The position numbers and the translations under genes were made by a program. Under the pieces are notes generated by a model. It worked only from the letters and a program-made list of their open reading frames with translations, did not search any database and was not told the origin of the DNA. 64,000 nucleotides of DNA from a virus (lineage: Duplodnaviria; Caudoviricetes): positions 40,090-104,089 of the IMG/VR virus record IMGVR_UViG_3300043447_000395; one strand, written 5' to 3'. The number at the start of each line of letters is the position of its first letter. The first letter of the stretch is position 1. Below are positions 7,480 to 29,651 of the stretch, piece by piece.

Positions 7480-8282
7480 TGAATAAGAAAAGGTTTTTTT
7501 CTTTTGGTTGTAGTTTTACTAAAGATTGGGGATGTCCAACATGGTCCGATTTTATTGGTATTCAATTCGATGAATATTATAATTTAGCAATGCCGGGGTC
7601 GTCAAATACTTTAATAATGCAGAGGTTTATTGAAAGTGACCTTTTTTATAATTTCAATAAAGATACTGACGTCATAATGATTGCCATAAGTGGATTAGGC
7701 AGAGTGAGTTTTCCTGTGACAAAATATAATGATCACGTAAAAAAAGATATGGACCATTTTTATAGTAGAGGTGATATTGATTCGTGTACATCAAGTGACA
7801 GTGATACTCCCGAAATACTTGAAATTGTTGATTTTGTTAAAACTAAATTTCATAAAAAAAGATATAGTGTTTTTGATTCATTCATTGCCGTTAAAGTAAT
7901 GAAAGATTTGTTAACCTCAAAGGGTATTGAACATAAGATTATTGCAGCATTGGATTATAAAATATATATCGACAATGCTGAAGTATATGGTATTGATTAC
8001 CAATTAAAATCTTACTTAGTTAAACTACAAGATATGTTAGACATAAAGGAATCAATAAATGAATTTGATGATTTTTCAGAACATCATCCCATACCAAAAA
8101 CATATTACTCTTTTTTGGAGAAACATTTACCTGAATATATTGGTCAAAAATCTTTAGAATTATTGAATGCCGATTATGGGGATAATTTTAATAAGTGGAT
8201 AATAGGGAAATATCCTGATTATCAAATGTTAAATGAATTTGACGCCACCAATCACCCGACATTTTGTTTTGGGTATTTTTAA
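7479..8282 (+). CDS. SGNH-like protein
   Basis: FGCSFT, NLAMPGSSN, EHHP. Confidence 0.6.
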   Translation: MNKKRFFSFGCSFTKDWGCPTWSDFIGIQFDEYYNLAMPGSSNTLIMQRFIESDLFYNFNKDTDVIMIAISGLGRVSFPVTKYNDHVKKDMDHFYSRGDIDSCTSSDSDTPEILEIVDFVKTKFHKKRYSVFDSFIAVKVMKDLLTSKGIEHKIIAALDYKIYIDNAEVYGIDYQLKSYLVKLQDMLDIKESINEFDDFSEHHPIPKTYYSFLEKHLPEYIGQKSLELLNADYGDNFNKWIIGKYPDYQMLNEFDATNHPTFCFGYF

Positions 8283-9091
8283 AAGTTAGGTCTGTTTTTT
8301 TGTAAATTACTAACTATCAAACCAGTTAAATAATCGTCTTTAGTGTAATATCCGTCATGGTTTATATTTTCGGTATATCTTAATATTGTATCAAAAACTA
8401 CTGCCATATAATAATTACCATATCTACCATAGTGACGGTCTTCTATTTTCCCGTTCGTTTCTTGTTCAATGGTTAGAAGATTATGTTCAGGTATAATGTC
8501 CTTATAAAAGTCATTATCTATCTCCCAAACAAAATATTTTTCCTTTTCAAAAATAACATTGTGTTGAGCAATTGGTGCCCAAACAATTGGTTTATAGTTG
8601 TTATGTAATTGAATTAGATAATTCATAAAAGGGACAGTATTCCTTCTTAAATAACCGTGTGGGTTGTCAACACTCTCCATCCTATATAATGTTTGGTCAT
8701 ATAAGATTTTAGTTTTTATATTGGTATCGTAATCTGGTTGTGCACCGCCAGTAATAACCATATTATTACCTCTTTTCCCTATCCAATTATATCTATTTAA
8801 ACCTGTCCAATTTAAAATTATTCTGTCTCCTATATTGAAGTTTAAACCAATTTCAGCAAATTGATTAAATATTGAATAATTTGAACATCCCGTCTGCGCC
8901 AAATTATTAATCTCGTGACCCCATAACTTAAGATAATCACTCCAATGTAAAGGGTCGGTGATTTTATTTTCCCTTAATAATTTAATATACCTGTAAATCC
9001 CATCAGTTGATTCAATGCCATTATTTAATTTATTAATTGATTCTGTAAATATATTATCACTAAACGAATCACCTAATATATGTAGTCTCAT
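8279..9091 (-). CDS. SGNH-like protein (paralog of 9095-9892)
   Basis: LGDSFS, NLAQTGCSN, NWTG..R, DRHYG. Confidence 0.6.
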   Translation of the reverse strand: MRLHILGDSFSDNIFTESINKLNNGIESTDGIYRYIKLLRENKITDPLHWSDYLKLWGHEINNLAQTGCSNYSIFNQFAEIGLNFNIGDRIILNWTGLNRYNWIGKRGNNMVITGGAQPDYDTNIKTKILYDQTLYRMESVDNPHGYLRRNTVPFMNYLIQLHNNYKPIVWAPIAQHNVIFEKEKYFVWEIDNDFYKDIIPEHNLLTIEQETNGKIEDRHYGRYGNYYMAVVFDTILRYTENINHDGYYTKDDYLTGLIVSNLQKNRPNF

Positions 9092-9094
9092 AAA

Positions 9095-9892
9095 TTATAA
9101 TTCAATGATGTTATGAGGTGTTGTTTTTATTTTCTCTTCTATTTTTGAAATTAATTCCGAATCTTTTGTGTAGTATCCGTCATGTTCAATATCATCAGTG
9201 TGTTCTAAAATTGTATTAAAAATTAATGCGGTGTAGAAATTACCATACCTACCATAATGTTGATCATTTATTTTCCCACTTGTTTCTTCATTAATTTCCA
9301 ATCTACTATATTCCGGTATAATATTTTCAAAAATAGGATCCTTGACATTCCAAATAAATCTTTTTTGATTTTCTATAATTTTGGAAATGTTTTCAAAAGG
9401 GGACCAAATAATTGGTTTCTTGTTCGTGTAGTTTTCAACAAAAAAAGAAATGAAATCCAAAGTTCTATTTTTTAAAATTTGACTACGTTCCCTATTTAAT
9501 CCTTGTTCAACTAAAATTTCATCAATTGTGGTCAATTTAGAATTTGGAGGCATTCCTCCTGTAAATGTTCTTACAATATTCTTTTCACAATACCAATCAA
9601 ATCTAACAAATCCGGTCCAATTTATTATAATTCTATCAAACGGTTTTTTAATTTGTGTAAACTGATGAAAGATAGATTCATTCGAACATCCTCCCTGACC
9701 TAAATTAATAACTTCGTGTCCCCATAGTTTTAAATAATCTTCAAAATAAAGTGGGTCAGGTAAATTTTTACTCTTTATTAATTTGACATATTCATTAAGT
9801 TGTCCTTCACTATGTGTACCATTTTTAATTGCATTTATTTCATATTTAAATAAATTGTCAGTAAAAGAATCGCCTAAAACATATATTTTCAT
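9095..9892 (-). CDS. SGNH-like protein (paralog of 8279-9091)
   Basis: LGDSFT, NLGQGGCSN, NWTG..R, DQHYGRYGN. Confidence 0.6.
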   Translation of the reverse strand: MKIYVLGDSFTDNLFKYEINAIKNGTHSEGQLNEYVKLIKSKNLPDPLYFEDYLKLWGHEVINLGQGGCSNESIFHQFTQIKKPFDRIIINWTGFVRFDWYCEKNIVRTFTGGMPPNSKLTTIDEILVEQGLNRERSQILKNRTLDFISFFVENYTNKKPIIWSPFENISKIIENQKRFIWNVKDPIFENIIPEYSRLEINEETSGKINDQHYGRYGNFYTALIFNTILEHTDDIEHDGYYTKDSELISKIEEKIKTTPHNIIEL

Positions 9893-10317
9893 TAACCTAA
9901 ATTTTCTTCACTACCCCAACTTATGTTCCAGTCTTTGAATTCAGCGGCTAAACAGTCAATTTTATAATCTTTTCTACCGCCCATCACTTCTTGGATTTTA
10001 TTTTTAGCGGTGTTACGTATACCATTTAAACCGTGAGTTAACGCCAAAGCGTTTGGACCTTCTTTACCACTTCTGACGTTCGATTCGTTGTGCCAAATAT
10101 GTAGATTCATTTGTGCAAGTACTATGATTGCTCTGATTTGTTCTCCGGTGATTCTACCATCAGTTTGACTTAATAGTAATTCGACATCATGAACAATATC
10201 AGCTATTTCTTGAGCATATTCTTCTTTATGGTCAGTAATAAACACTTCTTTTAGTTGTGAGATAGATAATCTATCAATCAATTCCGCCAATGTCGGTAGA
10301 TATTTTCTTTGTTCCAT
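9892..10317 (-). CDS. Hypothetical helical protein (DUF4254/DUF6165-like)
   Basis: LAELIDRLSISQLK and N..IWH.E...R motifs resemble these families. Confidence 0.35.
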   Translation of the reverse strand: MEQRKYLPTLAELIDRLSISQLKEVFITDHKEEYAQEIADIVHDVELLLSQTDGRITGEQIRAIIVLAQMNLHIWHNESNVRSGKEGPNALALTHGLNGIRNTAKNKIQEVMGGRKDYKIDCLAAEFKDWNISWGSEENLG

Positions 10318-10325: not shown

Positions 10326-11774
10326 TTAGTTATTATTATTTTCTTTATCCGATATATATTCACCCGCCTCATAGTTAGTTATACTACCATCGTAAATTCC
10401 TCTATCAGGTATGGTATTATCTATCTCAATAGCATCGAACCATTCTTTTAATTCAGGGAAAGTTTCGCCAAAGTTTTTATTTCTACGAATATCATATTGA
10501 GTGTAAAAACTTTTGAAATCGTGGAATTGTAAATCCTTTTCTAATTCTGTGGCGTTATGACCTCTATTTACTACCTCGATATAATCAATCAACCTTTCAA
10601 TTTGTGATTTTTCATTAATACTGAACAAATCACTATCCTTATTTTCGTTGTACCAATTTTGTAACTTATTACGTAGAGTTAATTTAATTTCATCAGGTAA
10701 CATTAATGGTGACATGAAAGACGGCCATCTTAAGATATTTAAATCCATATTAGGTCTATGTGCTCCATATTTCTTTTTTAATGTTTTCATATCCTCAAAG
10801 AATTCAACGATACTAAACAAACAAAGACTATTAATCGTCATCATAATGGTCAGCGCTCTGAAATTGGCGTTTTCTAAGAATGTAACTAAGTTAGCTCTCC
10901 ACGTTTTATATTTCAAACCATCTCTAATGTATTCTGCGTGGTCACCATATGATTCATTACTTGTATATAAATCGAATTCTTTGATTTTTAATTCGTGAGT
11001 CGCATCAATTAATTTATCTAATAATTTCTTACTTAAACCTAAATTAGAGTTAACTGCCAATCTTAAATTATTAGATGGATATTGTTTCATTGTTTCAATA
11101 AAACTCCAGAAATTATAACTTTGTGATGGTTCTCCACCTGTTACTCTAACCTCTTGTAATGTTTGTGATAATTCAGGCCACCACTCTAAGAATGCCTTTA
11201 CGTATGGATTGTTCTCACCATTCTTACCATATATTTCAGACCAAGAACCATCGCTTTGATATGCACCTGCACTACTTGTTTTAAACTTCTGATATGCTCC
11301 GTTAGTTTTAATATCTTTACCCCATGTTGTACTATAACCAGCATTACAATAACTACATCCAAAGTTACACGTTCTATCGAAACTCACCTCAACAGTTTTT
11401 AACAACACATCTTGATCCCACGGGATATTTTTCAATGCAGAAATCTCTTCTTCCGTGTAAATTAAACTTTTAAACACTCTATCTGCAATGTTATTTCTAC
11501 CGATGTCTTCCACTTTCCAACAGTACGAACACTCTGCGGGTCTAATACCCGTCAACATCATACGACGCATTTCCTTCTTATGTTTTGTATTGTGAAGTGC
11601 GGATGGGTTAGTTTTAATTTCTTCTAAATCGATTGGGTGAGGTAATGGTAAGTGACATGAATTTGTATAACCATGACCTAAATGTAAACTTGCGTTGTAC
11701 CATTTAGCAGCACAAAAACTGCAACTCACTGAGTTCAAATGTTTATCTCTCCAATCTGCTAATTCGTTTGACAT
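10326..11774 (-). CDS. Radical SAM protein with N-terminal twitch-like cysteine domain
   Basis: FCAAKW..SCH..ECSYCW, then CNFGCSYC, TGGEP. Confidence 0.88.
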   Translation of the reverse strand: MSNELADWRDKHLNSVSCSFCAAKWYNASLHLGHGYTNSCHLPLPHPIDLEEIKTNPSALHNTKHKKEMRRMMLTGIRPAECSYCWKVEDIGRNNIADRVFKSLIYTEEEISALKNIPWDQDVLLKTVEVSFDRTCNFGCSYCNAGYSTTWGKDIKTNGAYQKFKTSSAGAYQSDGSWSEIYGKNGENNPYVKAFLEWWPELSQTLQEVRVTGGEPSQSYNFWSFIETMKQYPSNNLRLAVNSNLGLSKKLLDKLIDATHELKIKEFDLYTSNESYGDHAEYIRDGLKYKTWRANLVTFLENANFRALTIMMTINSLCLFSIVEFFEDMKTLKKKYGAHRPNMDLNILRWPSFMSPLMLPDEIKLTLRNKLQNWYNENKDSDLFSINEKSQIERLIDYIEVVNRGHNATELEKDLQFHDFKSFYTQYDIRRNKNFGETFPELKEWFDAIEIDNTIPDRGIYDGSITNYEAGEYISDKENNNN

Positions 11775-11792
11775 ATTTCTAATTTTTATATT

Positions 11793-13139
11793 TTATATTA
11801 TTTTCGCTGGTCTTGCAAGTTTATTAAACTCATCACTTTTACTAATCTTATCTTCTTGAGTTTCGTAGATTTCGGCGTGATTACCGTTACCCGATTTATC
11901 GAAAACTTTAAAACTTGTTTTCTTTTTAAAATCGTACCACAAATAAAGATTCTCATCATCTTCAACACTACTATGGTAGACTTTCACATCCAATACATCA
12001 CCATAAAACCAACGATGATTATCATTGATACAATGTGGATTACCCGCACCAATAAAAATGTAACTATCAGAATAGTCGTATAGTTTGTATGTTATTTTCT
12101 TCTTCTTATATAATACGTTATTTACAAACATAGAGAAATTTTTACCTTTCTTTATGACTTTTACTGTTATTGGTGTTGTTAAATCATATTGGTCATGTAC
12201 AAAAATTTCATTTTGAAAAACTTCACCGTTATCATTTATCTCACGCCATGTCCATTTTAAAAAATCTTGTCCGTCATAATTGAATATAAAAATACCCATT
12301 GAACCTTCTCTTGAAATCACACATGAATCTAAACCTTCTGAACTATTAGGTGCCATCGTGAATGTAGTTTCAAAAATGAAATCTTTTTTTAATAGTTCAT
12401 AACTTTTGGTGTTAGTTTTACTATTAGTAAACCTATCAACTATGTATGCAACTTTTTCAGTGTTTGGTTCCGTCTTTCTTTTAACCTTAACTTCTTTTAC
12501 TACTACGGTAGGTTTGGTTTCGTTTTTAAAAATTTCAGCGTCGATTTTGTTACCTGATTTATCAAATATTTTAGTCGCACTACTGTTTTTAAAATCAAAC
12601 CACAAATACAATGTGTTAATGTTTTCATCACAACTATCGTATATTTTAATATCATGAATTTCACCATTAAACCAACCATAGTGCCCTTCTGGATTGTTAG
12701 GATTTGAAACACCGATAAACATAGACTTGTCAGAATAATCAAACAAATCAAATTTTATATGTTTAGTTTCATAGAATTCATTGTTCACATACAAATTGAA
12801 TGACTTATCTTTTTTAATGACTTTTACATTTGTAGATTCAAATAAATCATATTTTTTATGTACAAAAATTTCGTTATAGATGTGATTCTTTTCATTATCA
12901 ACTTCCCACCACACCCATTTGATGAAATTCTCATCATTAAAATTATAAAGGTATATACCCATATTATACCCTTCTCTTGATATAATACAACTTTCTCCTT
13001 CATTTGGTTTGTTTGCAACTAAATTAAATGTTGATTCAAATATAAAGTCGTCGGTAGTTATCAAGTCGTAACTATCGTTATTTGAATCGTTTTCCATTAC
13101 ACGATTTATTATGTATGCCTTTTTGTTTTTGAATATCAT
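11793..13139 (-). CDS. Tandem two-domain LamG/concanavalin-like protein
   Basis: Two ~200-aa repeats (SCIISREG, LYVNN, FIG..NP, WF.G.I.D.K.Y, FDKSGN). Likely start is ATG 13139, overlapping the upstream stop (ATGA). Confidence 0.65.
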   Translation of the reverse strand: MIFKNKKAYIINRVMENDSNNDSYDLITTDDFIFESTFNLVANKPNEGESCIISREGYNMGIYLYNFNDENFIKWVWWEVDNEKNHIYNEIFVHKKYDLFESTNVKVIKKDKSFNLYVNNEFYETKHIKFDLFDYSDKSMFIGVSNPNNPEGHYGWFNGEIHDIKIYDSCDENINTLYLWFDFKNSSATKIFDKSGNKIDAEIFKNETKPTVVVKEVKVKRKTEPNTEKVAYIVDRFTNSKTNTKSYELLKKDFIFETTFTMAPNSSEGLDSCVISREGSMGIFIFNYDGQDFLKWTWREINDNGEVFQNEIFVHDQYDLTTPITVKVIKKGKNFSMFVNNVLYKKKKITYKLYDYSDSYIFIGAGNPHCINDNHRWFYGDVLDVKVYHSSVEDDENLYLWYDFKKKTSFKVFDKSGNGNHAEIYETQEDKISKSDEFNKLARPAKII

Positions 13140-14527
13140 AGTTCTCCACATTTATGGTAAAATTCCTCCAATTCAGGAAAAGTTTTACAGAAGTTGGTAT
13201 TTCTTCTAATGTCATGTTCGGTAATAAACTTATAAAAATCTTTCCGATTTGTATTAATCATTTTATTACCTTCTGACGAAGTAAACCAATCTTTTATTCT
13301 TAAAATTTTATTTATTTCTATATCAGTAAATCCGTGACCATCCACAACACCAGTTCTTACTTGTTCATAAAAATCAACCAGTTTTGCTTGTTCATCAATC
13401 GCGGTGACCCAACTTTCATCTAATATTTTAACTGTTTGGTGTTCAGGAAATCTTAAGTATGAGGAATCTAATAATAATGATGACCCCCAATATCTCGATG
13501 GATTATGGTGTCTTCTCTTTAATTCTGCAACATCCTCAATTAGATATTTGTAATTCGGAACTGACAACGCATTGTACGTTGACATAATATCAATTGTAAG
13601 TGGTTTAAATTTATCCAATAAGAAATCTACCCTCTCTTTGAATAACTTATATTCAAAACCATTTCTGATGTATTCCGCTTGGGGTCCCCAAGTGTCACAA
13701 GAAGTGAAGATGATAAATTCATGAACTAATTCTTGGTCTAGTATTATTTCAATTTTCTTAACAAATTCATCAAATAACTTTTTTGGGATACCTAAATTAC
13801 TATTAATACATAAACTCAATTTTTTATTTGGGTTTGGTGTTTTAATAATGTAATCTAATATCTTAAACGTATCTTTATTTAATAACGGTTCTCCTCCTGT
13901 GATTCTAAACGTATGTAGGTCTTGATACATTTCAGGCCACCATTTCCAAAACGCGTCAACATATGGATTTTTTTCTGAAGCCAAATACGGCATCGTATCC
14001 TCCTTCTTAAACCATTCAACGTCGTTATAATTTGTGCTTGTTTTATAGGGTCCGTGAGTATTAATTTCTTCCATCCATTTAGACGAATACTGCGGACCAC
14101 AATACGAACACTTAAAATTACAAGTATTGGAAAAACTTACCTCAACGTATTTTGGATTGTAATTCTTTTTCCAACCAGATTTTAATATATCTTCAAAGTA
14201 AGGTGCTGACCATGGTTCTGCAGATTTTAAAGTTCTATCAGAAAATGCATATGATGCATTTTCAATATTCCAACAATAATCACACTCCTCAGGTCTTTTA
14301 TCCTCCAACATTTCTTTACGAATCTGTTTCTTAAAATTCGTATTATGTAATGCTGTTGGGTTGGTTAATATTTCATCTAACGGGATTTTATGTGGTTTAG
14401 GGTGGTGACAAGAATGGGTTGTTCCATTGTGTAAGTGCATGGTAACTTGAGTCCATTTTGCCAAACAGAACCCACATCCCACCATGTTTATCTTATCTCG
14501 TGTGTTATGAAATACGTCGTTTAACAT
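13136..14527 (-). CDS. Radical SAM protein with N-terminal twitch-like cysteine domain
   Basis: CGFCLAKW..SCHHP..ECDYCW, CNFKCSYC, ITGGEPLL. Confidence 0.88.
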   Translation of the reverse strand: MLNDVFHNTRDKINMVGCGFCLAKWTQVTMHLHNGTTHSCHHPKPHKIPLDEILTNPTALHNTNFKKQIRKEMLEDKRPEECDYCWNIENASYAFSDRTLKSAEPWSAPYFEDILKSGWKKNYNPKYVEVSFSNTCNFKCSYCGPQYSSKWMEEINTHGPYKTSTNYNDVEWFKKEDTMPYLASEKNPYVDAFWKWWPEMYQDLHTFRITGGEPLLNKDTFKILDYIIKTPNPNKKLSLCINSNLGIPKKLFDEFVKKIEIILDQELVHEFIIFTSCDTWGPQAEYIRNGFEYKLFKERVDFLLDKFKPLTIDIMSTYNALSVPNYKYLIEDVAELKRRHHNPSRYWGSSLLLDSSYLRFPEHQTVKILDESWVTAIDEQAKLVDFYEQVRTGVVDGHGFTDIEINKILRIKDWFTSSEGNKMINTNRKDFYKFITEHDIRRNTNFCKTFPELEEFYHKCGEL

Positions 14528-15120
14528 TCTAATATTTTATGGTGTAAGAAATTTAAATTTCCTGTTTTATCAATTGATTTATTAAAAATAATATCGTCAC
14601 AAGTGTGATGTGCTAATAATTTCGATTTCTCGTAAACTTTAAATTCATGTAAATAAAGTTCGGTACTGTTTGAGGTGTCGTCAACATGTGAATAACTATT
14701 TGCGCCAAAAACTATACATGGATTTGATTCAATGAATAGACCTAATTTTTCCAAACTTAAATCTAATTGTACTTCATCATTAATGTAGATTGTTAAAGAT
14801 TTTTTAGGAACATGAATCATCTTTAAATCAATTTCAACACCATCATGTATACTAAATGGAAATTGATAAAACTGTGACGATTCATCTTCATATCTTACCG
14901 TGAAGAACAACATATTTTTATGCACATCCAAACCACAATACTTTGGTAATATGGTAAATATGGTTGCGTTTTTATCTAAAGTATCTAATAACGTGAGTTT
15001 CATTTCTATTTTGAAATTGTACTCACCACTTAAAACCTTAGTTGCGGGATTTTCAGGAAAAGTATCACATAAAACCGATGGATAAAATATCCAAGGGCTA
15101 TATTTTTTTATATGTATCAT
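14521..15120 (-). CDS. LamG/concanavalin-like protein
   Basis: Beta-rich; IYIND, IVFGA, EFKVY, IDKTGN match the neighbouring LamG repeats. Confidence 0.5.
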   Translation of the reverse strand: MIHIKKYSPWIFYPSVLCDTFPENPATKVLSGEYNFKIEMKLTLLDTLDKNATIFTILPKYCGLDVHKNMLFFTVRYEDESSQFYQFPFSIHDGVEIDLKMIHVPKKSLTIYINDEVQLDLSLEKLGLFIESNPCIVFGANSYSHVDDTSNSTELYLHEFKVYEKSKLLAHHTCDDIIFNKSIDKTGNLNFLHHKILEC

Positions 15121-16492
15121 AAAATTTCTTTAATTCAGGAAACGTTTTAACAAAATTGGTGTCCCTTCTTTTATCTAACTCATCGACAAATTTCACAAAG
15201 TCTTTTCTATTTTTCTCAACATCAAAATCATCTTCGTGAATTGCATAATCGTACAATCTCTTTATTTTCTGAATTTCGGTGTTTGAGAATCCGTATGATC
15301 CTTGAACAAATTCGGTCATACCATAATATAACGCTTTTTTCGCAGATTCCAAAATCAACTCCTTATGTTTCTTATCTAAAATTTTAACCGATAGATGAGA
15401 AGGATATCTCAAATATGCGGTGTCTAGTTGAATCGCCGAAATCCAATATCTCTGACTATTCGCATATTTCTTTTTCGCTTTGAATACTCTTTCTATTAAG
15501 TCACTATATGTGAAAACTGAAAGTGCGTTATATGTTGACATGATGTTAATCGTAACTTTAGGTAATAACGTTAGAATTTTCTCTACGTTACTCCAAAATT
15601 TTTCATAATCCAAACCATTCCTTGTATACTCAGCTTGTTTACCTACCGCCTCAACCGATGTAAAGATAATTAATTCTCTAACTTTATTATTATCGGATAG
15701 GTCTTTAGCAATTTCAATAAACCTGTCAATAATTGAATCAGGTGACCCTAAATTTGTATTAATAGCTAATGATATGTTAGGGTTAATGTCAGAATGCTCT
15801 TGGATGTATTCTAAGACCTTAAATGTGTCCTTTGCTAATAACGGTTCTCCACCAGTAATTCGGAACGTGTGTAGGTCTTTAAAGAGGTCAGGCCACCATT
15901 CCCAAAACGCATCAACATATGGATTGTGTTCTGATTGTTTATACGGCATTTCATTCTTAGCTCTTAAATCGTCAACACTATTGTATCGATAACTTAAATC
16001 ATAGTGTCCGTGTTTCTCAACTTCCTCCACCCACTTTGAGGAGTACTGCGGTCCACAATATGCACATTTAAAATTACACGTATTTGAAAATGAAACCTCA
16101 ACATATCGTGGGTTGTAATCTTCTCTCCAATTAGATTTAGATATTGTGTCGAATTGGTTTAATGACCATGGTTCTGTTGATTTAAAAACCCTATCAGAAA
16201 AAGAATTCGAACTATCCTCAATATTCCAACAGTAATTACATTCAGAAGGTCTTTTACCTTCTAACATTTGTTTTCTTTTGTCTTTTTTGAATGTTGTATT
16301 GTGAAGTGCAGATGGGTTTCTCTTTAATTCGCTTAATGGAATTTTGTGTTGAACTGGATGGTGACACGAATGTGTTAAACCTGCACCCAAATGGATTGTT
16401 ACTTGAGTCCATTTTGCCAAACAGAATCCACATCCTACACTATCTAATTTATCTTTAGTTTTTTGAAACTCTTGTATGTTATTATCTGACAT
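15098..16492 (-). CDS. Radical SAM protein with N-terminal twitch-like cysteine domain
   Basis: CGFCLAKW..SCHHP..ECNYCW, CNFKCAYC, ITGGEPLL. Confidence 0.88.
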   Translation of the reverse strand: MSDNNIQEFQKTKDKLDSVGCGFCLAKWTQVTIHLGAGLTHSCHHPVQHKIPLSELKRNPSALHNTTFKKDKRKQMLEGKRPSECNYCWNIEDSSNSFSDRVFKSTEPWSLNQFDTISKSNWREDYNPRYVEVSFSNTCNFKCAYCGPQYSSKWVEEVEKHGHYDLSYRYNSVDDLRAKNEMPYKQSEHNPYVDAFWEWWPDLFKDLHTFRITGGEPLLAKDTFKVLEYIQEHSDINPNISLAINTNLGSPDSIIDRFIEIAKDLSDNNKVRELIIFTSVEAVGKQAEYTRNGLDYEKFWSNVEKILTLLPKVTINIMSTYNALSVFTYSDLIERVFKAKKKYANSQRYWISAIQLDTAYLRYPSHLSVKILDKKHKELILESAKKALYYGMTEFVQGSYGFSNTEIQKIKRLYDYAIHEDDFDVEKNRKDFVKFVDELDKRRDTNFVKTFPELKKFYDTYKKI

Positions 16493-16501
16493 GTCTTAAT
16501 T

Positions 16502-17908
16502 TTATAAAGTTACGTTAATCATAGTTACGTTACCTTCGTAAGATACACTATTTATTTCGTATTTTAAACTATTCATACCTTCATTTTTATAGTCAATTTT
16601 ACCTTGTTGCATCTTTGTGACAAACCTTTTCTCGTTCTTCGCAGTGGTTTCCCCTTTGACCCACTTACCATCCACAAAACCTTCATCTTTATGTTCCATA
16701 CAAAAGAATCTACCTTCTCTTCTTTGGGGTATTAGGTTTTGGGTTACGTCAAAACTTTCGTTTTCAATTTCCACATCATATCCCCAACCTGATGTTTCAT
16801 TAACGTTATTCATAAAACCGTTTGAAAAATCACAATCAAAAATTAAACCGTCGTTGGTGTTAAATGTGTCTTCGACTTTATCAATAAATTTGTTAAAGAT
16901 TTTAACATGACCAATTTTACCTTTGTAAAATGTAAATGTTTCATTACAGAAACCAATTATAAATGGTTCGGTATAATTATGTTTCATCAATTCTTCACCA
17001 ACAATAAAAGGTTTGTTCTCTTTACTACCACTTCTATTTGTAACTAATTCGTCATTTACATAGAAATACATTTCCTTCGTTTCATTGTTGAATGACATAG
17101 TAATCCAAGTCCATTCATTTTCAAACTTCTTAGCATAGTTGTAATGGTTGTTCTTTTTAATATCAAACATACTCATGTTAACTGAACGTGAGTTATTAAA
17201 CGATAATCCCCAAGTCCAACTACCCTTTTTCCTAATTAATGGGTATTCAACGAATTTTCTTTTCTCATCACCGACTAACCAAATAGGTACTTTACCTGGT
17301 TGTTGTTCCGCATTAAATAAGATTGATATGGTGTGATTGTTGCTTAAACATTCTGTCAATTCTTGATTTGTTGAGAATAGAGAAAACGATTTTTTACCGT
17401 CAAAAACCGCAACCGGTTTATTGTTATATGATTTAAAAATTGAGTTATTTGAATATCCCTCGAAATGGCACCTCCAAAACAAATCATCATCTTCCTGACC
17501 CCAATCCCAATATTCATTAGAGTATCCGTTTGTTCTTTCCATTTGTTCTTTGGTAAACAAAACAACACCTCCAAAGTATTGATCATAACCTAATGTATAT
17601 CCATATTTTGACAATTTGGTTGCAATATGTACAGGATGTTTATCAGGATAAGAATAGTCACACTCTTCAAATGGAACCATATCAACATCATGCCAAGCAA
17701 TGTAGTCACACCCGTCTTCAAATGCATGTTTTGCTGCAATATTTTTCATGGCACCTCTGTTGAATAGTTTATCATCAACTTGATGTGCAACATAAAATTG
17801 ATGTTCTATTCCTTGTTTATTTAAGTGTTCAGTTAGTGCAGGTACTAAAGCATCCAAATGATTCTTCCTGTTTCTATACGGTATACAAATACCTAATTTA
17901 TGACTCAT
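16502..17908 (-). CDS. GT7 beta-1,4-galactosyltransferase-like protein with inserted LamG domain
   Basis: IPYRNR, FNRG, HDVDM (DxD), YFGGV, NGYSN.YW.WGQEDDD, then ~240-aa LamG, then MEH...EGMNSLKY. Confidence 0.85.
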   Translation of the reverse strand: MSHKLGICIPYRNRKNHLDALVPALTEHLNKQGIEHQFYVAHQVDDKLFNRGAMKNIAAKHAFEDGCDYIAWHDVDMVPFEECDYSYPDKHPVHIATKLSKYGYTLGYDQYFGGVVLFTKEQMERTNGYSNEYWDWGQEDDDLFWRCHFEGYSNNSIFKSYNNKPVAVFDGKKSFSLFSTNQELTECLSNNHTISILFNAEQQPGKVPIWLVGDEKRKFVEYPLIRKKGSWTWGLSFNNSRSVNMSMFDIKKNNHYNYAKKFENEWTWITMSFNNETKEMYFYVNDELVTNRSGSKENKPFIVGEELMKHNYTEPFIIGFCNETFTFYKGKIGHVKIFNKFIDKVEDTFNTNDGLIFDCDFSNGFMNNVNETSGWGYDVEIENESFDVTQNLIPQRREGRFFCMEHKDEGFVDGKWVKGETTAKNEKRFVTKMQQGKIDYKNEGMNSLKYEINSVSYEGNVTMINVTL

Positions 17909-19350
17909 ATTCCAACATTTATATGTGTAAAATTTTTGTTTATTATATTGACACCGTATTCAATAAATTGTAATGTTGATAATCCATCATTATACAATAA
18001 ATCATCATTTAGTGAAACTTCATTAAGGAATCTTAATTGATTCCATCTCGTTGCTTGGTCTTTCCATTTATTTTCTACAAAACCATTTTCCATGTGAGGC
18101 ATTAAACTAAACAACGACTTTCTTCTATGTGGTATTTTTACATATAAAATATCATCCATTTTAAAATTAATCATCTCACAGTTCACAATTTCACCATCGT
18201 TATTGTTATTAGTTAAATCAACTAATTTATAATCTTTAATTTTAGATGCATCGTAATATAACTTCAATGAGGATGATGAATTATAATCACCATAATTTTT
18301 TGTTAATTGATTATCAAAATTATTAGAAATTTCAAATACCTCTTTTTCATTTAATGCGGAATTCCAATGTGCAAATAAATCAATATATCCTTTGAAATAT
18401 TTTTCGCCGTTTTCATCTACATATTTTAAAAACTTTCTATTTGGGTCACCTACACCTAAATAAAAGTGTTCTTCGTTTTTGTAGTTATATATGTTTTTAA
18501 AATCAACATCACCGATTTTTAAACCATCTTGGTAAACAGTAATTTTATGTGTGTCGTAATCTATCGTAACACACATATTTGTTTTATAATTAGGTTTGAT
18601 TTTTGAATTCACATATAAGACGTTGTTGTCTTTATCAAATGTACAAAAATTATATCTTGAGAATGAATTGTATGAAATTGCAAAATCATGCCCTGGTATC
18701 GAAAAAACATTATAATTGTCGGTAGAACTTAAATGATTACATATTAATTTCTCCGGATAAAATGAAATGAAGAATGTGTTATTTCCGTTTAAGTCGAAAT
18801 TGTTTTTTCCTTTAACATATGCATTAATTCCATTGAATTTTAACGATTTACTTTTTGGTCTTAAGTTTTTTAATTCCAAAGTGTCTAATTCTAATTCATG
18901 TTTTTTACATCTATAAAGTAAATCAGTATCCTCAAATCCCCATCCCCAATACTTGTTTGAATAACCGTCTATTTTTTTAAAGTCTTCGACCGTAAACATG
19001 GTAACTCCGCCGAAATATTCTTCAAAGGTTTCTTTAGGTTTTTCGTCTCTATCAAAATATTGAAAATCGGTGGCCATGTGTAATGGTTTATCTGAGTAAC
19101 TATAGTCAACCGATATTGGGACCATGTCAACATCATGAAAAACAACGTAATCACATTTCATTTTTTCTGCATAAGTAAATCCAATATTAAGAAGTGAACC
19201 TCTATTGAATTGTTTTGCGTCATCTTGGTCAATAACAAAAACATGATAAGGAATTCCCAAGTTTTCTAAATAAAATTTAAGATTTCTTGAGAATTCCCTA
19301 AGTTGATTTTTTCTATTTCGATAAGGTACTATTATACCTAATTTTTTCAT
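17905..19350 (-). CDS. GT7 beta-1,4-galactosyltransferase-like protein with inserted LamG domain
   Basis: VPYRNR, FNRGSLLN, FHDVDM, YFGGV, YWGWGFEDTD, LamG insert, LMPH...DGLSTLQF. Confidence 0.85.
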   Translation of the reverse strand: MKKLGIIVPYRNRKNQLREFSRNLKFYLENLGIPYHVFVIDQDDAKQFNRGSLLNIGFTYAEKMKCDYVVFHDVDMVPISVDYSYSDKPLHMATDFQYFDRDEKPKETFEEYFGGVTMFTVEDFKKIDGYSNKYWGWGFEDTDLLYRCKKHELELDTLELKNLRPKSKSLKFNGINAYVKGKNNFDLNGNNTFFISFYPEKLICNHLSSTDNYNVFSIPGHDFAISYNSFSRYNFCTFDKDNNVLYVNSKIKPNYKTNMCVTIDYDTHKITVYQDGLKIGDVDFKNIYNYKNEEHFYLGVGDPNRKFLKYVDENGEKYFKGYIDLFAHWNSALNEKEVFEISNNFDNQLTKNYGDYNSSSSLKLYYDASKIKDYKLVDLTNNNNDGEIVNCEMINFKMDDILYVKIPHRRKSLFSLMPHMENGFVENKWKDQATRWNQLRFLNEVSLNDDLLYNDGLSTLQFIEYGVNIINKNFTHINVGI

Positions 19351-19562
19351 TTATCTTCGGTTTTGTCTTTGTACACGTCATCAACAAGATACTTCTTGTA
19401 ATATTCATGTAGATAAAATTGTAATCTTTCGCTCCATTCATTTTTATCAATTTCTTCAAACCAAATGGTTAATGAATCAAGTGAATTACCAATTTTTTCG
19501 AGGGCTTTAATTTTTCTTAATTCTAAATCGAATTGTTGTTTTTCTTTTTCTTCCTTTGTCAT
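19347..19562 (-). CDS. Hypothetical protein
   Basis: 71-aa ORF coupled to both neighbours by 4-nt overlaps. Confidence 0.6.
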   Translation of the reverse strand: MTKEEKEKQQFDLELRKIKALEKIGNSLDSLTIWFEEIDKNEWSERLQFYLHEYYKKYLVDDVYKDKTEDK

Positions 19563-20410
19563 ATAGATTTTATTTTATTTATCAAATAATTCCATTGTCT
19601 ATATCCGTTATATTCGGGATATATTAATCCTTTTTCAAACATGAAATCGGGGTTGTCTAAGTTTATTTTGAATTTTGTTTTAAGTAATGATTTGAACATT
19701 CTTGAATATTCGTCTGAATATGAATAATCTTGTTTGACATTTGCAACTTCTCGTATTCTGTCAATTGCAGTTTTGTCCCATTTAAAATGGTGAACTTGTA
19801 CCGTTTTAGAAGGATGTATTAAAGGATGATTCCATCCTTGCCATCTCCATGTTGTTTGACCATTTATCTTCGCATAATGTTGTCCATTGGTGATTTCAAT
19901 ATAACCTTTAACAACACAAATTTTATTTGGACAAGCTTCACTCATTGGATACCTAAAAAATCCAGCATTTGGGTATTGTTCCCAAATCGATATGTCATTT
20001 TGTAATTCAACGAATTCACCGTTCTCACCAATCCTATCAATAAATCCTCCTCTTACAATATCCCAACCATTTATTTCACATTCTTTGATTAATGTTTTTA
20101 GATTATTTTCGGGATATAAATGAAATTCGTCAATGTCGGCAATAACCCACCAATCATTGGGATGTTTTGATTTAATAAAATTATATAGACCTGTAACCTT
20201 CTCCCAATCAAATACTCTACTTTTAATTGTGTGAGCAATTTTAACATTATTAAAATCCTTAATAATGTCTCTAACTTCATAATTAATCGTTGGATTGACA
20301 TCCGATTCATAAACAATGATGTTTATTTCATCGACATGACTTTTATAATGATTTATAAAATGAGTGAGTAAATTTGAACCGTGACCAATAACTGTTAATA
20401 GACGAATCAT
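19559..20410 (-). CDS. GT-A fold glycosyltransferase (GT2-like)
   Basis: HFINHY, WWVIADIDEF (DxD), VHHFKW. Confidence 0.7.
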   Translation of the reverse strand: MIRLLTVIGHGSNLLTHFINHYKSHVDEINIIVYESDVNPTINYEVRDIIKDFNNVKIAHTIKSRVFDWEKVTGLYNFIKSKHPNDWWVIADIDEFHLYPENNLKTLIKECEINGWDIVRGGFIDRIGENGEFVELQNDISIWEQYPNAGFFRYPMSEACPNKICVVKGYIEITNGQHYAKINGQTTWRWQGWNHPLIHPSKTVQVHHFKWDKTAIDRIREVANVKQDYSYSDEYSRMFKSLLKTKFKINLDNPDFMFEKGLIYPEYNGYRQWNYLINKIKSI

Positions 20411-20457: not shown

Positions 20458-21219
20458 TTATTTTTTTCTAATAATAGTAATTCCGGTTGATGATGGTTTG
20501 TTTTTAACTATACCGTGATTAAATAGATTAATCTTTTCCCAAACATTAGTGTCAATCTCTTGAACAAACTTTATTGGTCCTGTCCAATCGTCGTGATCGC
20601 CTCTATCCTTAACTTCTTGGGTTATAATGAAATTGTCAGCATAATTGGGGTCAGTGTCGTGTATTGAAACGATACCATTTGGTGATAATAGTTGTGTGTA
20701 CAATTCAAAATCTTCTTTAACACTTTCGTAACTATGTCCAGCATCAATATGTAGATAATCGATTTGTATTTCTTGTTTTACAAAGAAATTATAGAAAGCG
20801 TCTTCGGTTGTTGTGTTTAATATCCTCGGAGAGTAAACTCTTCTAAAAAATGATTCTTCGTTCATCCAATTAACCTGACCTCCAATTCCATTCGCAGCAT
20901 CGACTATGTATGTGGTACCAATATCACCCCAATTAATGTCACGAGTTCCCTCAAATATCTTTTGTGAATGTAAATCTAATCTTGCTTGTGTCATAATACG
21001 AGGTATAAATCCTCCACCACTACCTAAACATACACAAACCTTTGCTCTCATGTATTGAATAAGTGAATAAACAATTAAACCGTCACCTAAGTGTAGGTCA
21101 GTTGCACCGTGTGACCATCTATATGGTACGTTAACTAATTTTTCATCACCAACTTCATCAAATTCAACATTGTTGGTGATTTCACATCTTATAAATTCTT
21201 GATTAGTAATCATATTCAA
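20458..21219 (-). CDS. Class I SAM-dependent methyltransferase (Methyltransf_24-like)
   Basis: CLGSGGG, IDYLHIDAGHSYESVKEDF, GIVSIHDT. Confidence 0.8.
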   Translation of the reverse strand: MNMITNQEFIRCEITNNVEFDEVGDEKLVNVPYRWSHGATDLHLGDGLIVYSLIQYMRAKVCVCLGSGGGFIPRIMTQARLDLHSQKIFEGTRDINWGDIGTTYIVDAANGIGGQVNWMNEESFFRRVYSPRILNTTTEDAFYNFFVKQEIQIDYLHIDAGHSYESVKEDFELYTQLLSPNGIVSIHDTDPNYADNFIITQEVKDRGDHDDWTGPIKFVQEIDTNVWEKINLFNHGIVKNKPSSTGITIIRKK

Positions 21220-21911
21220 TTAGTGTTATCGATTTTATCTTTAATTAACGTATATAACTCATTGTCTCTCTGTATTTGTACACCACATATTCTTGCGGAT
21301 ATTTGAATTGATATTCCTTCGCCCGAACCGACAACAGTTTTTCTCCCACTAATCACATCACACGACTCCTTAATGACTTGTAACTTCTCGTACATTTGAT
21401 AGAAATTATCTTTTAACCCTTCTTTATTAAAAACTAAGAAGTACTCGTAAATCGTCTCTAAATCACCATATTGTGGGTATATTTTTTGTAAATATGTTTT
21501 ATAATTCAACCAATCAACATCATCAGGATTCATTTGAATATCTTTCACATACTCTTTTCTAATTTTATGCCCTAATAAGGTTTCAACATACGAAATTCCT
21601 TTTTGGTAAGGGTAATTATTTAATTGATTAACAAATGAATAATCAGATATTAAAGTATCCGCATCGATTATGATTGAGATATTGTGTTGTTTTAATATTT
21701 CCTTAACCAATATTATTTTATCATGATATGATTTAAGACGTCTATTGTAATCTATCAGTCTAATGTTAGTATTCGATGTGAATTGATTTGGTTCGTCAGT
21801 TAACACATAACACTTGATTCCCATATCATTTAAATGTGTTAATTTGTTTTTAGTTTTAGTAAAATAAGACTCATCCCCAAAACACATTATACCTATGGCA
21901 ATATTACTCAT
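21216..21911 (-). CDS. Hypothetical protein, possible GT-A glycosyltransferase
   Basis: VLTD, YHDK, IIIDADT (DxD), GEG. Confidence 0.45.
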   Translation of the reverse strand: MSNIAIGIMCFGDESYFTKTKNKLTHLNDMGIKCYVLTDEPNQFTSNTNIRLIDYNRRLKSYHDKIILVKEILKQHNISIIIDADTLISDYSFVNQLNNYPYQKGISYVETLLGHKIRKEYVKDIQMNPDDVDWLNYKTYLQKIYPQYGDLETIYEYFLVFNKEGLKDNFYQMYEKLQVIKESCDVISGRKTVVGSGEGISIQISARICGVQIQRDNELYTLIKDKIDNTN

Positions 21912-21947: not shown

Positions 21948-24482
21948 TTAAAATCCTTTAATCACAACGACTTTACCTGTTTGATTTGATGAGAAATAAA
22001 CATTGATATTGTTCGAATTGACAGAATTAATTCTTGAAGGTATCACAACATCTCTATTATTATCCCAAACTGTGACAACAGTAAAATCGGAATTTAAGTT
22101 GTGTGGAATGGACCACGTTGCTGAGTTAGTAAAACTCCCTGTATATCTTAAATCATATATGTTACTAACTGGAATTGAACCACTTATAATGTGTCCACCT
22201 GGTGCGATATTAATATTACCTGTTTGTGGTGATGAGAAGTACACCTCCATATTATTAGTGTCAACCGCCTTTATACCACTCGGAATAACTATTCTATCGG
22301 TGTTGTCATAAACATTAACTAACGGATATTTTGTCCCTAAATTGTGTGTTATTGACCAAGTTGCCATGTTAGTAACCGCATATGTTACTCCACCGGCACC
22401 ATCTCTACCTGATGTTCCTGAACTACCTGATGTACCACTTGAACCAGATGTTCCTGAAGTACCTGTACTACCCGAAGTTCCAGATGAACCACTTGAACCT
22501 GAACTTCCACTCGTTCCACTACTTCCTGAACTACCTGATGTACCACTTGAACCAGATGTTCCACTGGTTCCTGATGAACCACGAGTACCTGAACTTCCAC
22601 TTGTACCACTACTTCCTGACGTTCCACTTGACCCCGAACTACCACTAGTACCTGATGTTCCACTTGTCCCGCTTGAACCTGAACTACCGCTTGTTCCTGA
22701 AGTTCCGCTACTACCAGAACTACCTGATGTGCCAGCAGTCCCTGACGAACCTGAGCTACCACTAGTTCCTGAAGTACCACTTGAACCTGAACTACCACTT
22801 GTACCTGAGGTTCCACTAGAACCCGATGAACCACTTGAACCTGAAGTGCCTGAAGTTCCTGATGAACCACTAGAACCTGAGGTTCCACTAGTACCTGAAC
22901 TACCACTCGTACCACTTGTTCCAGCTGTTCCTGAAGAACCACTAGAACCCGATGTACCAGAAGTTCCTGAAGAACCAGCAGCCTTTACCCACGCAGTTCC
23001 TGTATATCTATAAATGTTAGTGTCTGTCGTATCGTAATAAATTGCTCCCGTTGCATTCATTGCCGGAGTACCTGTTGAAACAGGAATCGATAATGAACCC
23101 GTAATTCTCACAGAACCCGTGAAATTATGTTGGTCACCTGCATCGTTACCAAAGGCAGATGATCCACTTTGGAAACTTGTTGTCATAAATGTAACCGAGT
23201 TGGATACGATATATTGGTTTGCAGTTAGATTACCTCTAACTTGTAAATTACCACTGATAATACCACTACCTGTCACATTTAAATTACTTCCATCAAACGA
23301 CATGTTTGATTCAACAGTTGCATTTGGTGCAGACCCATTAAGAGTTATAATACCATTATCAAATGTACCTGTTAATGTTACTGTTCCGCTTGAACCTGAA
23401 CTACCTGATGTACCTGCAGTTCCTGAAGTACCGGCAGTTCCTGAAGAGCCCGAACTACCACTTGTTCCACTTGTTCCTGACGAACCTGAACTACCTGATG
23501 TTCCACTCGTGCCTGCACTTCCTGAGGAGCCAGAACTTCCCGACGTACCACTTGTACCTGACGAACCTGAAGTACCTGATGTTCCACTCGTGCCTGAAGA
23601 ACCACTTGATCCTGATGTTCCTGATGATCCGCTCAATCCTGAAGAACCTGATGTACCAGCACTTCCCGAGGAACCGGAACTTCCTGATGTACCACTTGTA
23701 CCTGAGGAACCAGAACTTCCGCTAGTCCCTGAAGTACCCGATGAACCACTTGTACCTGAAGTACCGGATGTTCCCGAAGATCCTGAACTACCACTTGTTC
23801 CTGAAGACCCACTTGAGCCTGATGTTCCGCTCGTACCTGATGTACCCGAACTTCCGCTCGAACCTGAAGTTCCACTCGTTCCACTACTACCTGATGAACC
23901 CGAACTACCACTTGTACCAGCACTTCCTGATGAACCAGAACTACCACTTGTACCAGCACTTCCTGATGAACCGCTAGTACCTGAACTACCACTAGAACCT
24001 GATGAACCAGACGTTCCTGAAGAGCCCGAACTACCACTTGTACCTGATGAACCACGAGTACCTGAACTACCACTTGTACCAGCACTTCCTGATGAACCCG
24101 AGGTTCCGCTAGTACCTGATGTACCCGCAGCCTTTACCCACGCAGTTCCTGTATATCTATAAATGTTTGTATCTGTTGTATCGTAATAAATTGAACCCGT
24201 TGCCTTTAAAATCGGGGAACCGTTTGATGTGGGAATTGTAAGTGCTCCCGTTATAAAAACTGAACCAGTAAACAAATGTGTATCGTCAATTGTATCACCA
24301 AAAACTGTATTACCTGAAGAAAATGATTGAGTAAAATGAGTTACCGATGATGATATTATTAACTGTTGTGCGGTGATGTTACCACCAACAACTAAATCTT
24401 GTGATAAAGATAATGATCCTGTTATTGATGCACCTCCGTCATTAACTAACAGTCCGTTTTTTACTATAAATTGATTCGCCAT
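21948..24482 (-). CDS. Collagen-like (Gly-Ser/Thr-Ser) fibre protein
   Basis: Two long G-x-y tracts, duplicated FG...H.FTGS modules, C-terminal W.I.HNL repeats. Likely start is ATG 24482 (MANQFIVKNGL), matching the paralog's MANELVVKNGL. Confidence 0.75.
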   Translation of the reverse strand: MANQFIVKNGLLVNDGGASITGSLSLSQDLVVGGNITAQQLIISSSVTHFTQSFSSGNTVFGDTIDDTHLFTGSVFITGALTIPTSNGSPILKATGSIYYDTTDTNIYRYTGTAWVKAAGTSGTSGTSGSSGSAGTSGSSGTRGSSGTSGSSGSSGTSGSSGSSGSSGTSGSSGSAGTSGSSGSSGSAGTSGSSGSSGSSGTSGTSGSSGSSGTSGTSGTSGSSGSSGTSGSSGSSGTSGTSGTSGSSGTSGTSGSSGSSGTSGTSGSSGSSGSAGTSGSSGLSGSSGTSGSSGSSGTSGTSGTSGSSGTSGTSGSSGSSGSAGTSGTSGSSGSSGTSGTSGSSGSSGTAGTSGTAGTSGSSGSSGTVTLTGTFDNGIITLNGSAPNATVESNMSFDGSNLNVTGSGIISGNLQVRGNLTANQYIVSNSVTFMTTSFQSGSSAFGNDAGDQHNFTGSVRITGSLSIPVSTGTPAMNATGAIYYDTTDTNIYRYTGTAWVKAAGSSGTSGTSGSSGSSGTAGTSGTSGSSGTSGTSGSSGSSGTSGTSGSSGSSGSSGTSGTSGSSGSSGTSGTSGSSGSSGTAGTSGSSGSSGTSGTSGSSGSSGTSGTSGTSGSSGSSGTSGSSGTSGSSGTRGSSGTSGTSGSSGTSGSSGSSGTSGSSGSSGSSGTSGSTGTSGTSGSSGTSGSSGTSGRDGAGGVTYAVTNMATWSITHNLGTKYPLVNVYDNTDRIVIPSGIKAVDTNNMEVYFSSPQTGNINIAPGGHIISGSIPVSNIYDLRYTGSFTNSATWSIPHNLNSDFTVVTVWDNNRDVVIPSRINSVNSNNINVYFSSNQTGKVVVIKGF

Positions 24483-24488
24483 ATGTTT

Positions 24489-24510
24489 ACTGTTTTCACT
24501 GTCCAACAGT
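24489..24510 (-). promoter_or_regulatory. 5'-leader hairpin ACTGTT-GGACAGTGAA-AACAGT
   Basis: 6-bp perfect stem with 10-nt loop, between the TATTTATA box and ATG 24482. Confidence 0.4.
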
Positions 24511-24514
24511 CTTA

Positions 24515-24522
24515 TATAAATA
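24515..24522 (-). promoter_or_regulatory. Putative late promoter TATTTATA
   Basis: Same octamer recurs upstream of structural genes. Confidence 0.55.
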
Positions 24523-24546
24523 CTTTATTATTTCGTTTAAGTAAAT

Positions 24547-24579: not shown

Positions 24580-24598
24580 AACATGTATCATTATTTTT

Positions 24599-29617: not shown

Positions 29618-29651
29618 TTTTTATATTTAATTTTTTTTAAGTTAGTCACAC

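Follow-up and report, generated by a model that had tools for sequence, protein, structure and literature searches.

Self-glycosylating viruses are known, and the fibril glycosylation of chloroviruses and mimivirus is virus-encoded; sugar-tailoring radical S-adenosylmethionine (SAM) enzymes (rSAMs) are known from antibiotic pathways. As far as we are aware, the known virion-glycosylation systems are not described as using rSAMs, GT7 glycosyltransferases or LamG adaptors. Here we report an operon in which these three occur together, located in a 64,000-nucleotide stretch of viral DNA (the window) that comprises bases 40090-104089 of the 104,089-bp IMG/VR virus record IMGVR_UViG_3300043447_000395 (CheckV completeness about 31%). 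As in virus-encoded virion glycosylation, the virus's own sugar-nucleotide, transferase and tailoring genes stand beside structural genes. The cassette, made of GT7 enzymes, rSAMs in which an extra cysteine cluster comes first, and a shared lectin-fold module, was not described in the searchable literature, including that on jumbo-phage rSAMs plus glycosylation. New is the cassette; virus-encoded glycosylation and sugar-tailoring rSAMs are known kinds of system, and the enzyme family is catalogued.

SPASM and twitch domains are C-terminal extensions of the rSAM core; several twitch/SPASM enzymes act on sugars or aminocyclitols, and the auxiliary cluster of BtrN, held by four cysteines, was proposed to be an electron acceptor (PMC9012708). 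BtrN, anSME, SkfB and AprD4, which carry such a C-terminal twitch or SPASM domain, consist of an rSAM core with one extra cysteine site, as do the rSAMs of the window, and are among their best structural matches. In the window rSAMs, however, the extra domain stands ahead of the barrel rather than behind it, and the identity is 10-19%. Closer still is the NCBIfam entry NF033640 (N_Twi_rSAM, twitch domain-containing radical SAM protein), of which the window rSAMs are full members, with the same N-terminal four-cysteine region and CxxxCxxC core; this family is a catalogue entry. For the transferases, the nearest relatives are the animal beta-1,4-galactosyltransferases 1 and 7 (CAZy GT7; PDB 4LW3, 4IRQ, 1TVY), which have in common with the phage enzymes the Pfam 7N and 7C domains, the DVD, YFGGV and WGxEDDD motifs and a C-terminal His; the phage GT7s differ in being soluble, without a type II anchor, and in carrying a LamG module of about 250 residues within the catalytic fold. 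On the side of the acceptor, glycans of mycobacteriophage capsids and tail tubes are covered by Freeman et al. 2023, as cited in PMC12619734. On balance, we lean towards reading the locus as the core of a phage operon for building and editing a glycan, in which related LamG modules target the enzymes and the likeliest target is the phage's own (Gly-Ser/Thr-Ser)n tail-fiber-like proteins.

The core of the operon consists of seven genes, given here in the order of transcription:

17905..19350, minus strand: GT7a, with Glyco_transf_7N, Glyco_transf_7C and Laminin_G_3 domains
16502..17908, minus strand: GT7b, of GT7a-like architecture (7N, 7C and nested LamG)
15098..16492, minus strand: rSAM1, Radical_SAM domain, NF033640 at 346.9 bits, the type that follows the GT7 pair
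14521..15120, minus strand: p199, a free LamG-like protein of 199 aa, recognized by profile comparison
13136..14527, minus strand: rSAM2, Radical_SAM domain, NF033640 at 322.0 bits
11793..13151, minus strand: free LamG-LamG protein of 452 aa, Pfam Laminin_G_3 at 40.7 bits in two stretches
10326..11774, minus strand: rSAM3, Radical_SAM domain, NF033640 at 290.2 bits

An earlier note, made from the letters of this DNA without database searches, had proposed the order GT7-LamG, GT7-LamG, rSAM, LamG, rSAM, LamG-LamG, rSAM with overlapping or near-abutting genes. Open reading frame (ORF) coordinates together with Pfam and profile matches bear out this order, all on the minus strand, and the junctions, with lengths taken from the gene coordinates, are in transcription order a 4-nt overlap, a 9-nt gap, overlaps of 23, 7 and 16 nt, and an 18-nt gap. 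The span of 10326-19350 given for the operon holds for the core, but the transcription unit continues past both ends.

GT7a and GT7b are true relatives of the beta4-galactosyltransferases. The Pfam matches of GT7a (7N, 73.7 bits; 7C, 70.7 bits) and of GT7b (63.4 and 68.9 bits) exceed the cut-offs of 27 and 23, and the two proteins are 30% identical to each other. The motifs HDVDM, YFGGV and WGxEDxDL and the C-terminal His are intact in both; judged by sequence, the two enzymes thus keep all catalytic motifs of the animal enzymes. An AlphaFold2 (AF2) model of GT7a (predicted local distance difference test, pLDDT, 94.4) was matched by Foldseek to Drosophila and human B4GalT7 (E = 2e-14) and to bovine and human B4GalT1 (1e-12), with 31-35% identity over about 158 columns, and the LamG insert of the model matched LamG, pentraxin and carbohydrate-binding folds. 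LamG is therefore present in the transferases as the earlier note had stated, but its placement has to be corrected: it is not appended but nested within the catalytic fold, at about residues 156-410 of GT7a, and the last ~70 residues return to the GT-A domain. No membrane anchor and no hydrophobic segment was found in GT7a, which begins at position 47 of the 7N profile. A tblastn search with GT7a against cultured phages gave no match, and PHROGs has no family for GT7-LamG.

By their sequences, the three rSAMs are intact and belong to NF033640, each having a CxxxCxxC site and, in the N-terminal region, four conserved cysteines. All three scores lie above the curated cut-off of 170 bits, and the matches span model positions 2/4-398 of 398; a scan of the whole contig gave the same assignment. 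The extra N-terminal cluster described in the earlier note was found at C24, C43, C85 and C88 (motifs FCLAKW, SCH and ECxYCW), ahead of C139, C143 and C146 of the CxxxCxxC motif; a GGEP motif is also present, at 214-217. In an alignment, the seven cysteines are invariant in the three paralogs and in a homolog from a Ralstonia phage, and among 72 diverse members of the family they are invariant except for C85 (>=90% conserved). The claim that the auxiliary motif precedes the core likewise holds, with residues 24-88 lying before a core that starts near residue 130; the C-terminal auxiliary domain by which SPASM and twitch enzymes are recognized is absent from rSAM1-3. The same note had been unable to assign the architecture to a characterized pathway. 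This is still true of the pathway; the architecture, however, is curated, since membership of the rSAMs in NF033640 means that the cluster-first arrangement is already catalogued.

In the AF2 model of rSAM1 (pLDDT 95.7), a beta-hairpin lies between C24 and C43 and helices surround C85 and C88, followed by a partial TIM barrel; as modeled, this layout of Cys, beta-hairpin, Cys and CxxC resembles the twitch pattern and is compatible with it. Structure searches with Foldseek and a VIA-align wide search returned SkfB (Z 15.0), BlsE (13.5), PFL-AE (13.1) and DesII (12.1), further matches near Z 12 to SuiB, viperin, MoaA and anSME, and CteB, also among the top matches. The identities of these neighbors to rSAM1 are 10-17%.

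With the rSAM alignment as query, we retrieved more than 577 viral contigs and 144 matches in GTDB genomes. Neighborhoods were counted in the best 79 viral loci of the more than 577 contigs and in 80 GTDB loci, and a tree was built from 288 members. Although rSAM2 is 55% identical to rSAM1, the array is not a set of recent copies. Of the 56 viral rSAMs located after GT7, 55 fall in one clade of the tree (71 sequences, support 0.99), as do rSAM1 and rSAM2. rSAM3 is placed in a separate clade (36 sequences, support 1.0), in which 27 members come after a free LamG gene, and by this tree belongs to a separate, older subfamily. As the clades split by position, the array represents old, position-specific paralogs. 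The family as a whole is large: when grouped at 90% identity, its members make up at least 5,946 clusters in the protein database, and aquatic metagenomes are very rich in them. Three loci (L146:141-2441, L147:150-2450 and L153:6933-9419) encode rSAMs with an N-terminal extension of 290-360 residues made of charged helical repeats (..CEKH/SSPY..E.. units), for which no relatives were found elsewhere in the data.

The LamG modules of the operon are related to each other. With Laminin_G_3 (PF13385, cut-off 27.6 bits), GT7a (33.0 bits) and the LamG-LamG protein score above the cut-off and GT7b (25.2 bits) below it. No Pfam match was obtained for p199, for which the earlier note had called LamG; the call stands nonetheless, as a profile of p199 and 17 homologs matched in hhalign the free-LamG cluster c6 (98.6% probability) and the LamG-LamG protein (98.1%). 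The order rSAM, p199, rSAM recurs in 17 viral loci. The LamG-LamG protein is matched by the free-LamG profile c6 (1e-64) and by the profile of the GT7-LamG family (4e-29), and the free-LamG profile matches GT7b at 1e-7, from which we conclude that the transferases and the rSAM partners use one related module.

A link between LamG and rSAM, suggested by the earlier note, is real. The gene directly downstream of an rSAM in the viral loci is LamG-like 57 times, another rSAM 29 times and a member of an uncharacterized family 11 times. In seven loci LamG is fused N-terminally to an rSAM in a single ORF, either as LamG-rSAM of about 698 aa (L128, L129, L131, L132, L134 and L136) or as LamG-LamG-rSAM of 931 aa (L139); these fusions support a functional link between LamG and rSAM. 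The order in the fusions is LamG first and rSAM second; if the window follows it, the partners would be p199 for rSAM2 and the LamG-LamG protein for rSAM3. Of the 79 viral loci, 53 have LamG, free or fused, and all of these 53 also have GT7. The interpretation in the earlier note is partly supported: the coupling of LamG and rSAM holds, while LamG is a putative adaptor and a glycan the putative substrate, and the idea that LamG binds sugar or presents a glycan found no support here.

The core genes belong to a longer unit on the minus strand, which runs from p231 through methyltransferase, GT2-like transferase, p71 and the seven genes above to p141 and two more genes. The additional members are, again in transcription order:

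21216..21911, minus strand: p231, 231 aa, first gene of the block, 4-nt overlap with the methyltransferase start
20458..21219, minus strand: SAM-dependent methyltransferase (Methyltransf_24, Pfam PF13578, 43.6 bits)
19559..20410, minus strand: GT2-like glycosyltransferase, 283 aa (Pfam Glyco_tranf_2_4, a weak match of 23.8 bits, under the cut-off)
19347..19562, minus strand: p71, 71 aa, absent from the earlier gene list; overlaps the GT2 stop by ATGA and the GT7a start by 4 nt
9892..10317, minus strand: p141, 141 aa, the next gene of the unit after rSAM3, with homologs in six other loci (five viral, one contig of a metagenome-assembled genome, MAG)
8279..9892, minus strand: two abutting co-directional genes of 265 and 270 aa after p141, without Pfam match

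From p231 through the two genes past p141, these form one translationally coupled unit. Homologs of p231 lie directly upstream of the methyltransferase (MT) in five other viral loci. p71 can be aligned with a family of 27 small proteins, most of them 70-85 aa long, located between GT2 and GT7 in 24 viral loci and one MAG contig, which share the motif LE.RKVKALEKIA...WFEE.DK.EW and are probably helical, like p71 itself. Neither p231 nor p71 nor p141 has a match in Pfam or PHROGs.

The arrangement is conserved. Of the 79 viral loci, 62 have homologs of GT7, 55 of GT2 and 51 of MT; 48 show the order MT-GT2-GT7-GT7-rSAM, and 24 have a small p71-type protein. The number of rSAM copies per locus ranges from 1 to 7, and the tandem GT7 pair is kept in most cassette loci. 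Dozens of independent viral contigs show this order, which is therefore not due to chance. Genes for NDP-sugar epimerases/dehydratases, RmlC-like proteins and enzymes dependent on thiamine pyrophosphate (TPP) also recur near the rSAM in phage loci; the TPP-enzyme, RmlC-like and epimerase genes beside the cassette in other phages hint at a branched or deoxy sugar.

Outside this cassette, the family keeps other company. Most of the 80 GTDB loci belong to Bdellovibrionota, where the rSAMs have ABC-2 exporter pairs, GT4, GT2 and further rSAMs as neighbors but no LamG; ABC-2 exporter genes were counted in 18 of the 80. Among the GTDB loci (L051, L052, L020, L061 and others), some Bdellovibrionota chromosomes carry arrays of up to eight N_Twi_rSAM paralogs, while the exporter, GT4 and GT2 neighbors are seen in other Bdellovibrionota loci; a 320-aa protein (c9) is found near the rSAM in 25 loci. 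GT7 is present in five GTDB loci, all of them short MAG contigs on which the cassette is of the phage type, and these may represent phage DNA that was binned along. Among cultured phages, Ralstonia phage RsoM2USA alone carries a full-length N_Twi_rSAM homolog (gp349, 41% identity). Its cassette (L008, 217327-221946 of MG752970.1) is a different one, consisting of two c16 genes, one further gene, c8, rSAM and c8, and this type is shared by several viral contigs and by a Neomarinimicrobiota MAG, there on two contigs. Glycan genes are what the contexts of the rSAM family have in common; LamG and GT7 come as accessories with one phage cassette.

The record itself is a fragment of a tailed jumbo phage. 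Its proteins match PHROGs of T4-type baseplate wedge, tail fiber, thymidylate synthase, phage sigma factor, SbcC-like nuclease and DNA methyltransferase, and its genes are densely packed and frequently overlap. The GC content is about 30% and rises locally to about 44% across the repeat fiber genes because of their Gly-(Ser/Thr)-Ser repeats. An origin from a giant virus, which low GC, collagen repeats and GT7 had brought to mind, was rejected in view of the T4-type baseplate and tail-fiber, sigma factor, SbcC-like and DNA methyltransferase PHROGs and the dense, overlapping genes.

The operon lies within a run of sugar genes of ~46 kb, which includes epimerases/dehydratases, a 2-oxoglutarate (2OG) oxygenase, a SPASM-type rSAM, a transketolase-like protein, a carbamoyltransferase and several glycosyltransferases (GTs), and which is flanked on both sides by tail-fiber-type genes. 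Features of this surrounding region that bear on the operon are:

21948..31383, minus strand: three fiber-like proteins of 852, 1672 and 558 aa (Pfam Collagen; PHROG tail-fiber/virion-structural families)
39291..41114, minus strand: a fourth (Gly-Ser/Thr-Ser)n fiber-like protein of 607 aa (Pfam Collagen, repeat scan, PHROG)
3934..5070, plus strand: a fourth rSAM, of the ordinary type, in the divergent sugar-nucleotide block (Pfam Radical_SAM; conserved C-terminal cysteines)

The fiber genes lie 36 nt upstream of the operon on the same strand. Their collagen regions consist of (Gly-Ser/Thr-Ser)n, with 149, 277 and 20 triplets in the proteins of 852, 1672 and 558 aa, respectively; X is Ser/Thr in about 90-99% of the triplets and Y is Ser in about 70-90%, with almost no proline. 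Collagen-like glycoproteins are known elsewhere: those of the BclA type in the Bacillus exosporium and the cuticle collagen of Riftia, with its Gly-X-Thr repeats, carry O-glycans. Like these, the phage proteins are hydroxyl-rich Gly-X-Y fibers, and in the phage such fiber genes adjoin dedicated sugar genes. Unlike BclA and the Riftia collagen, the phage repeats are Gly-(Ser/Thr)-Ser and nearly free of proline, and their glycosylation is presumed. The fiber-like proteins are attractive candidate acceptors for O-glycosylation. A hydropathy scan at contig positions of about 15-62 kb predicted no transmembrane segment in any gene, and the phage island does not contain the combination of a polyprenyl-phosphate transferase with a flippase, ABC exporter or polymerase that marks a lipid-linked polysaccharide pathway. 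Because the island has no membrane proteins, the glycan is probably built on a soluble acceptor and not on a lipid carrier.

The fourth rSAM scores 45.6 bits with NF033640, compared with the cut-off of 170, and belongs to neighbor family c33; the representative of this family matches Pfam SPASM weakly. The divergent sugar block further contains a 2OG-Fe(II) oxygenase of the prolyl-hydroxylase type (window 2175-2927, plus strand) and a split transketolase/E1-like TPP enzyme (window 5074-6583, plus strand). At the window's edge lies part of an 896-aa member of family c2 (window 2-1276, plus strand; whole gene at contig 38651-41365), a large phage-only family with 61 members in 49 fetched loci. 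In some relatives c2 stands between two rSAMs, in the slot taken here by the LamG-LamG protein; the one lead to its nature is that ESM Atlas relates it weakly to GT10 fucosyltransferases (score 0.79). Family c15 comprises six paralogs of about 240-295 aa dispersed over the sugar island (window 6592-9892, contig 24565-34990); its profile matches window 9095-9892 weakly (5e-07), as well as five other genes of the contig. Pfam searches on about 30 representatives of neighbor families gave mostly no match.

In the reading that we favor, the GT2-like and GT7 enzymes would put together a short glycan inside the infected cell, on a soluble acceptor, and the methyltransferase and the rSAMs would then tailor it. 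Each rSAM would cleave SAM to a 5'-deoxyadenosyl radical, which would abstract a hydrogen from a sugar carbon, while the N-terminal four-cysteine site, where we presume a [4Fe-4S] cluster with full ligation like that of BtrN, would take or return an electron. The outcome could be oxidation to a keto-sugar, epimerization or a related rearrangement, and the rSAM paralogs may differ in the position or residue on which they act. All these enzymes would be steered by the related LamG modules to one common macromolecular target, in this phage most likely its own (Gly-Ser/Thr-Ser)n tail-fiber-like proteins encoded upstream. A bolder version, which goes well beyond this and which we regard as improbable, has the phage make proteoglycan-like fibers: the repeats would be O-glycosylated in the cytoplasm by the soluble relatives of B4GalT7 and B4GalT1, and the sugars would be edited in place by lectin-guided, oxygen-independent rSAMs, with LamG serving as a shared targeting module like the RiPP recognition element (RRE) of maturases of ribosomally synthesized peptides with post-translational modifications (RiPPs). 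If true, this would be post-glycosylation editing on a protein-bound glycan of a kind not described for any virus or cell.

Several observations weigh against a glycan-editing operon aimed at the fibers. The structural neighbors of the modeled rSAM1 are generic rSAM cores that do not fix its chemistry; no characterized enzyme is close enough, and therefore no reaction can be transferred to the rSAMs. Literature searches found no paper on the NF033640 family or on the function of an N-terminal twitch domain. The N-terminal domain gave only chance matches to PDB sequences in phmmer, none below E = 1, and its profile aligned in hhalign to the SPASM-type rSAM family of the loci with a probability of 0.3%, with the best local alignment falling on that family's region of hairpin plus Cys. 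The four N-terminal cysteines could bind zinc rather than an Fe-S cluster. Moreover, N_Twi_rSAMs occur without LamG in bacteria and in other phages. The earlier note had considered that its proposal would fail if homologous rSAMs generally lacked LamG and GT7 as neighbors and no interaction was predicted or detected, and half of this is what we found: 75 of the 80 GTDB loci, 17 of the 79 viral loci and Ralstonia phage RsoM2USA are without GT7 or LamG. The enzyme family therefore does not require LamG, which accompanies one phage cassette as an accessory. As for the acceptor, a Gly-X-Y (collagen-like) ORF was found within 8 kb of an rSAM in just one of the 79 other viral loci, and a strict (Gly-Ser/Thr-Ser)6 DNA pattern in one of four large cassette contigs, where the repeat gene adjoins the cassette in the same orientation. 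As repeat fibers are so rarely near the cassette elsewhere, we put forward the fibers as acceptor only as a hypothesis.

The same observations have to be compared with other functions. The rSAMs might serve to produce unusual nucleotide-sugar donors; they would then work on NDP-sugars ahead of the transfer step, as DesII and BlsE do on small sugar substrates, with LamG in an unrelated role. The NDP-sugar epimerase/dehydratase, RmlC-like and TPP-dependent enzymes that are common neighbors would fit this, as would BlsE (Z 13.5) and DesII (12.1) among the best structural matches; the fusion of a lectin fold to rSAM in seven loci and its nesting in the transferases, however, fit a macromolecular target better, and the rSAMs are placed after the transferases and not within the divergent sugar-nucleotide block. 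We hold this to be unlikely, though with a real chance of being right. If instead the rSAMs modified protein directly, for example by oxidation, epimerization or cross-linking of Ser/Thr side chains or C-alpha atoms of the repeat fibers, LamG would dock the protein as an RRE does. Peptide-modifying enzymes (SkfB, CteB, SuiB and anSME) are indeed among the top structural matches, and Ser/Thr makes up about two-thirds of the repeats in the neighboring fibers. But this similarity is confined to the common rSAM core, repeat fibers are not generally adjacent to the cassette, and in phages the family is conserved together with glycosyltransferases, in Bdellovibrionota with polysaccharide exporters plus GT4 and GT2, all of which makes direct modification quite doubtful in our view.

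Nor need the virion be the target, as the operon could remodel the surface polysaccharide or lipopolysaccharide of the host during infection, for superinfection exclusion or host takeover. Phage GTs that change the host serotype are known (reviewed in PMC12619734) and offer a precedent, and the N_Twi_rSAM family is also found within bacterial polysaccharide-export loci. We nevertheless give this little credence: the 46-kb island is without a predicted membrane protein, flippase, polymerase or polyprenyl-phosphate transferase and sits between tail-fiber-type genes, and there is no integrase or lysogeny gene among the scanned proteins, the contig representing about 31% of the genome. A role of the cassette in hypermodifying phage DNA with a glycan is very improbable. 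Phage GTs often glycosylate DNA, according to work cited in PMC12619734, and the contig encodes an enzyme of the thymidylate-synthase family; near the cassette, however, there is no hydroxymethyl-pyrimidine kinase, DNA-GT family or other DNA-modification gene, and deoxy- and branched-sugar genes, LamG lectin folds and the fiber context do not fit such a role.

The LamG fusions provide a concrete, testable rule for how these rSAMs find their substrate, and Ralstonia phage RsoM2USA is a cultured entry point to the enzyme family. Solving the reaction of the rSAMs would annotate thousands of genes and could reveal new oxygen-independent carbohydrate chemistry. If the virion fiber is the target of the phage's glycan-building and glycan-editing operon, the finding would have a bearing on host recognition and on the evasion of defense by large marine phages.

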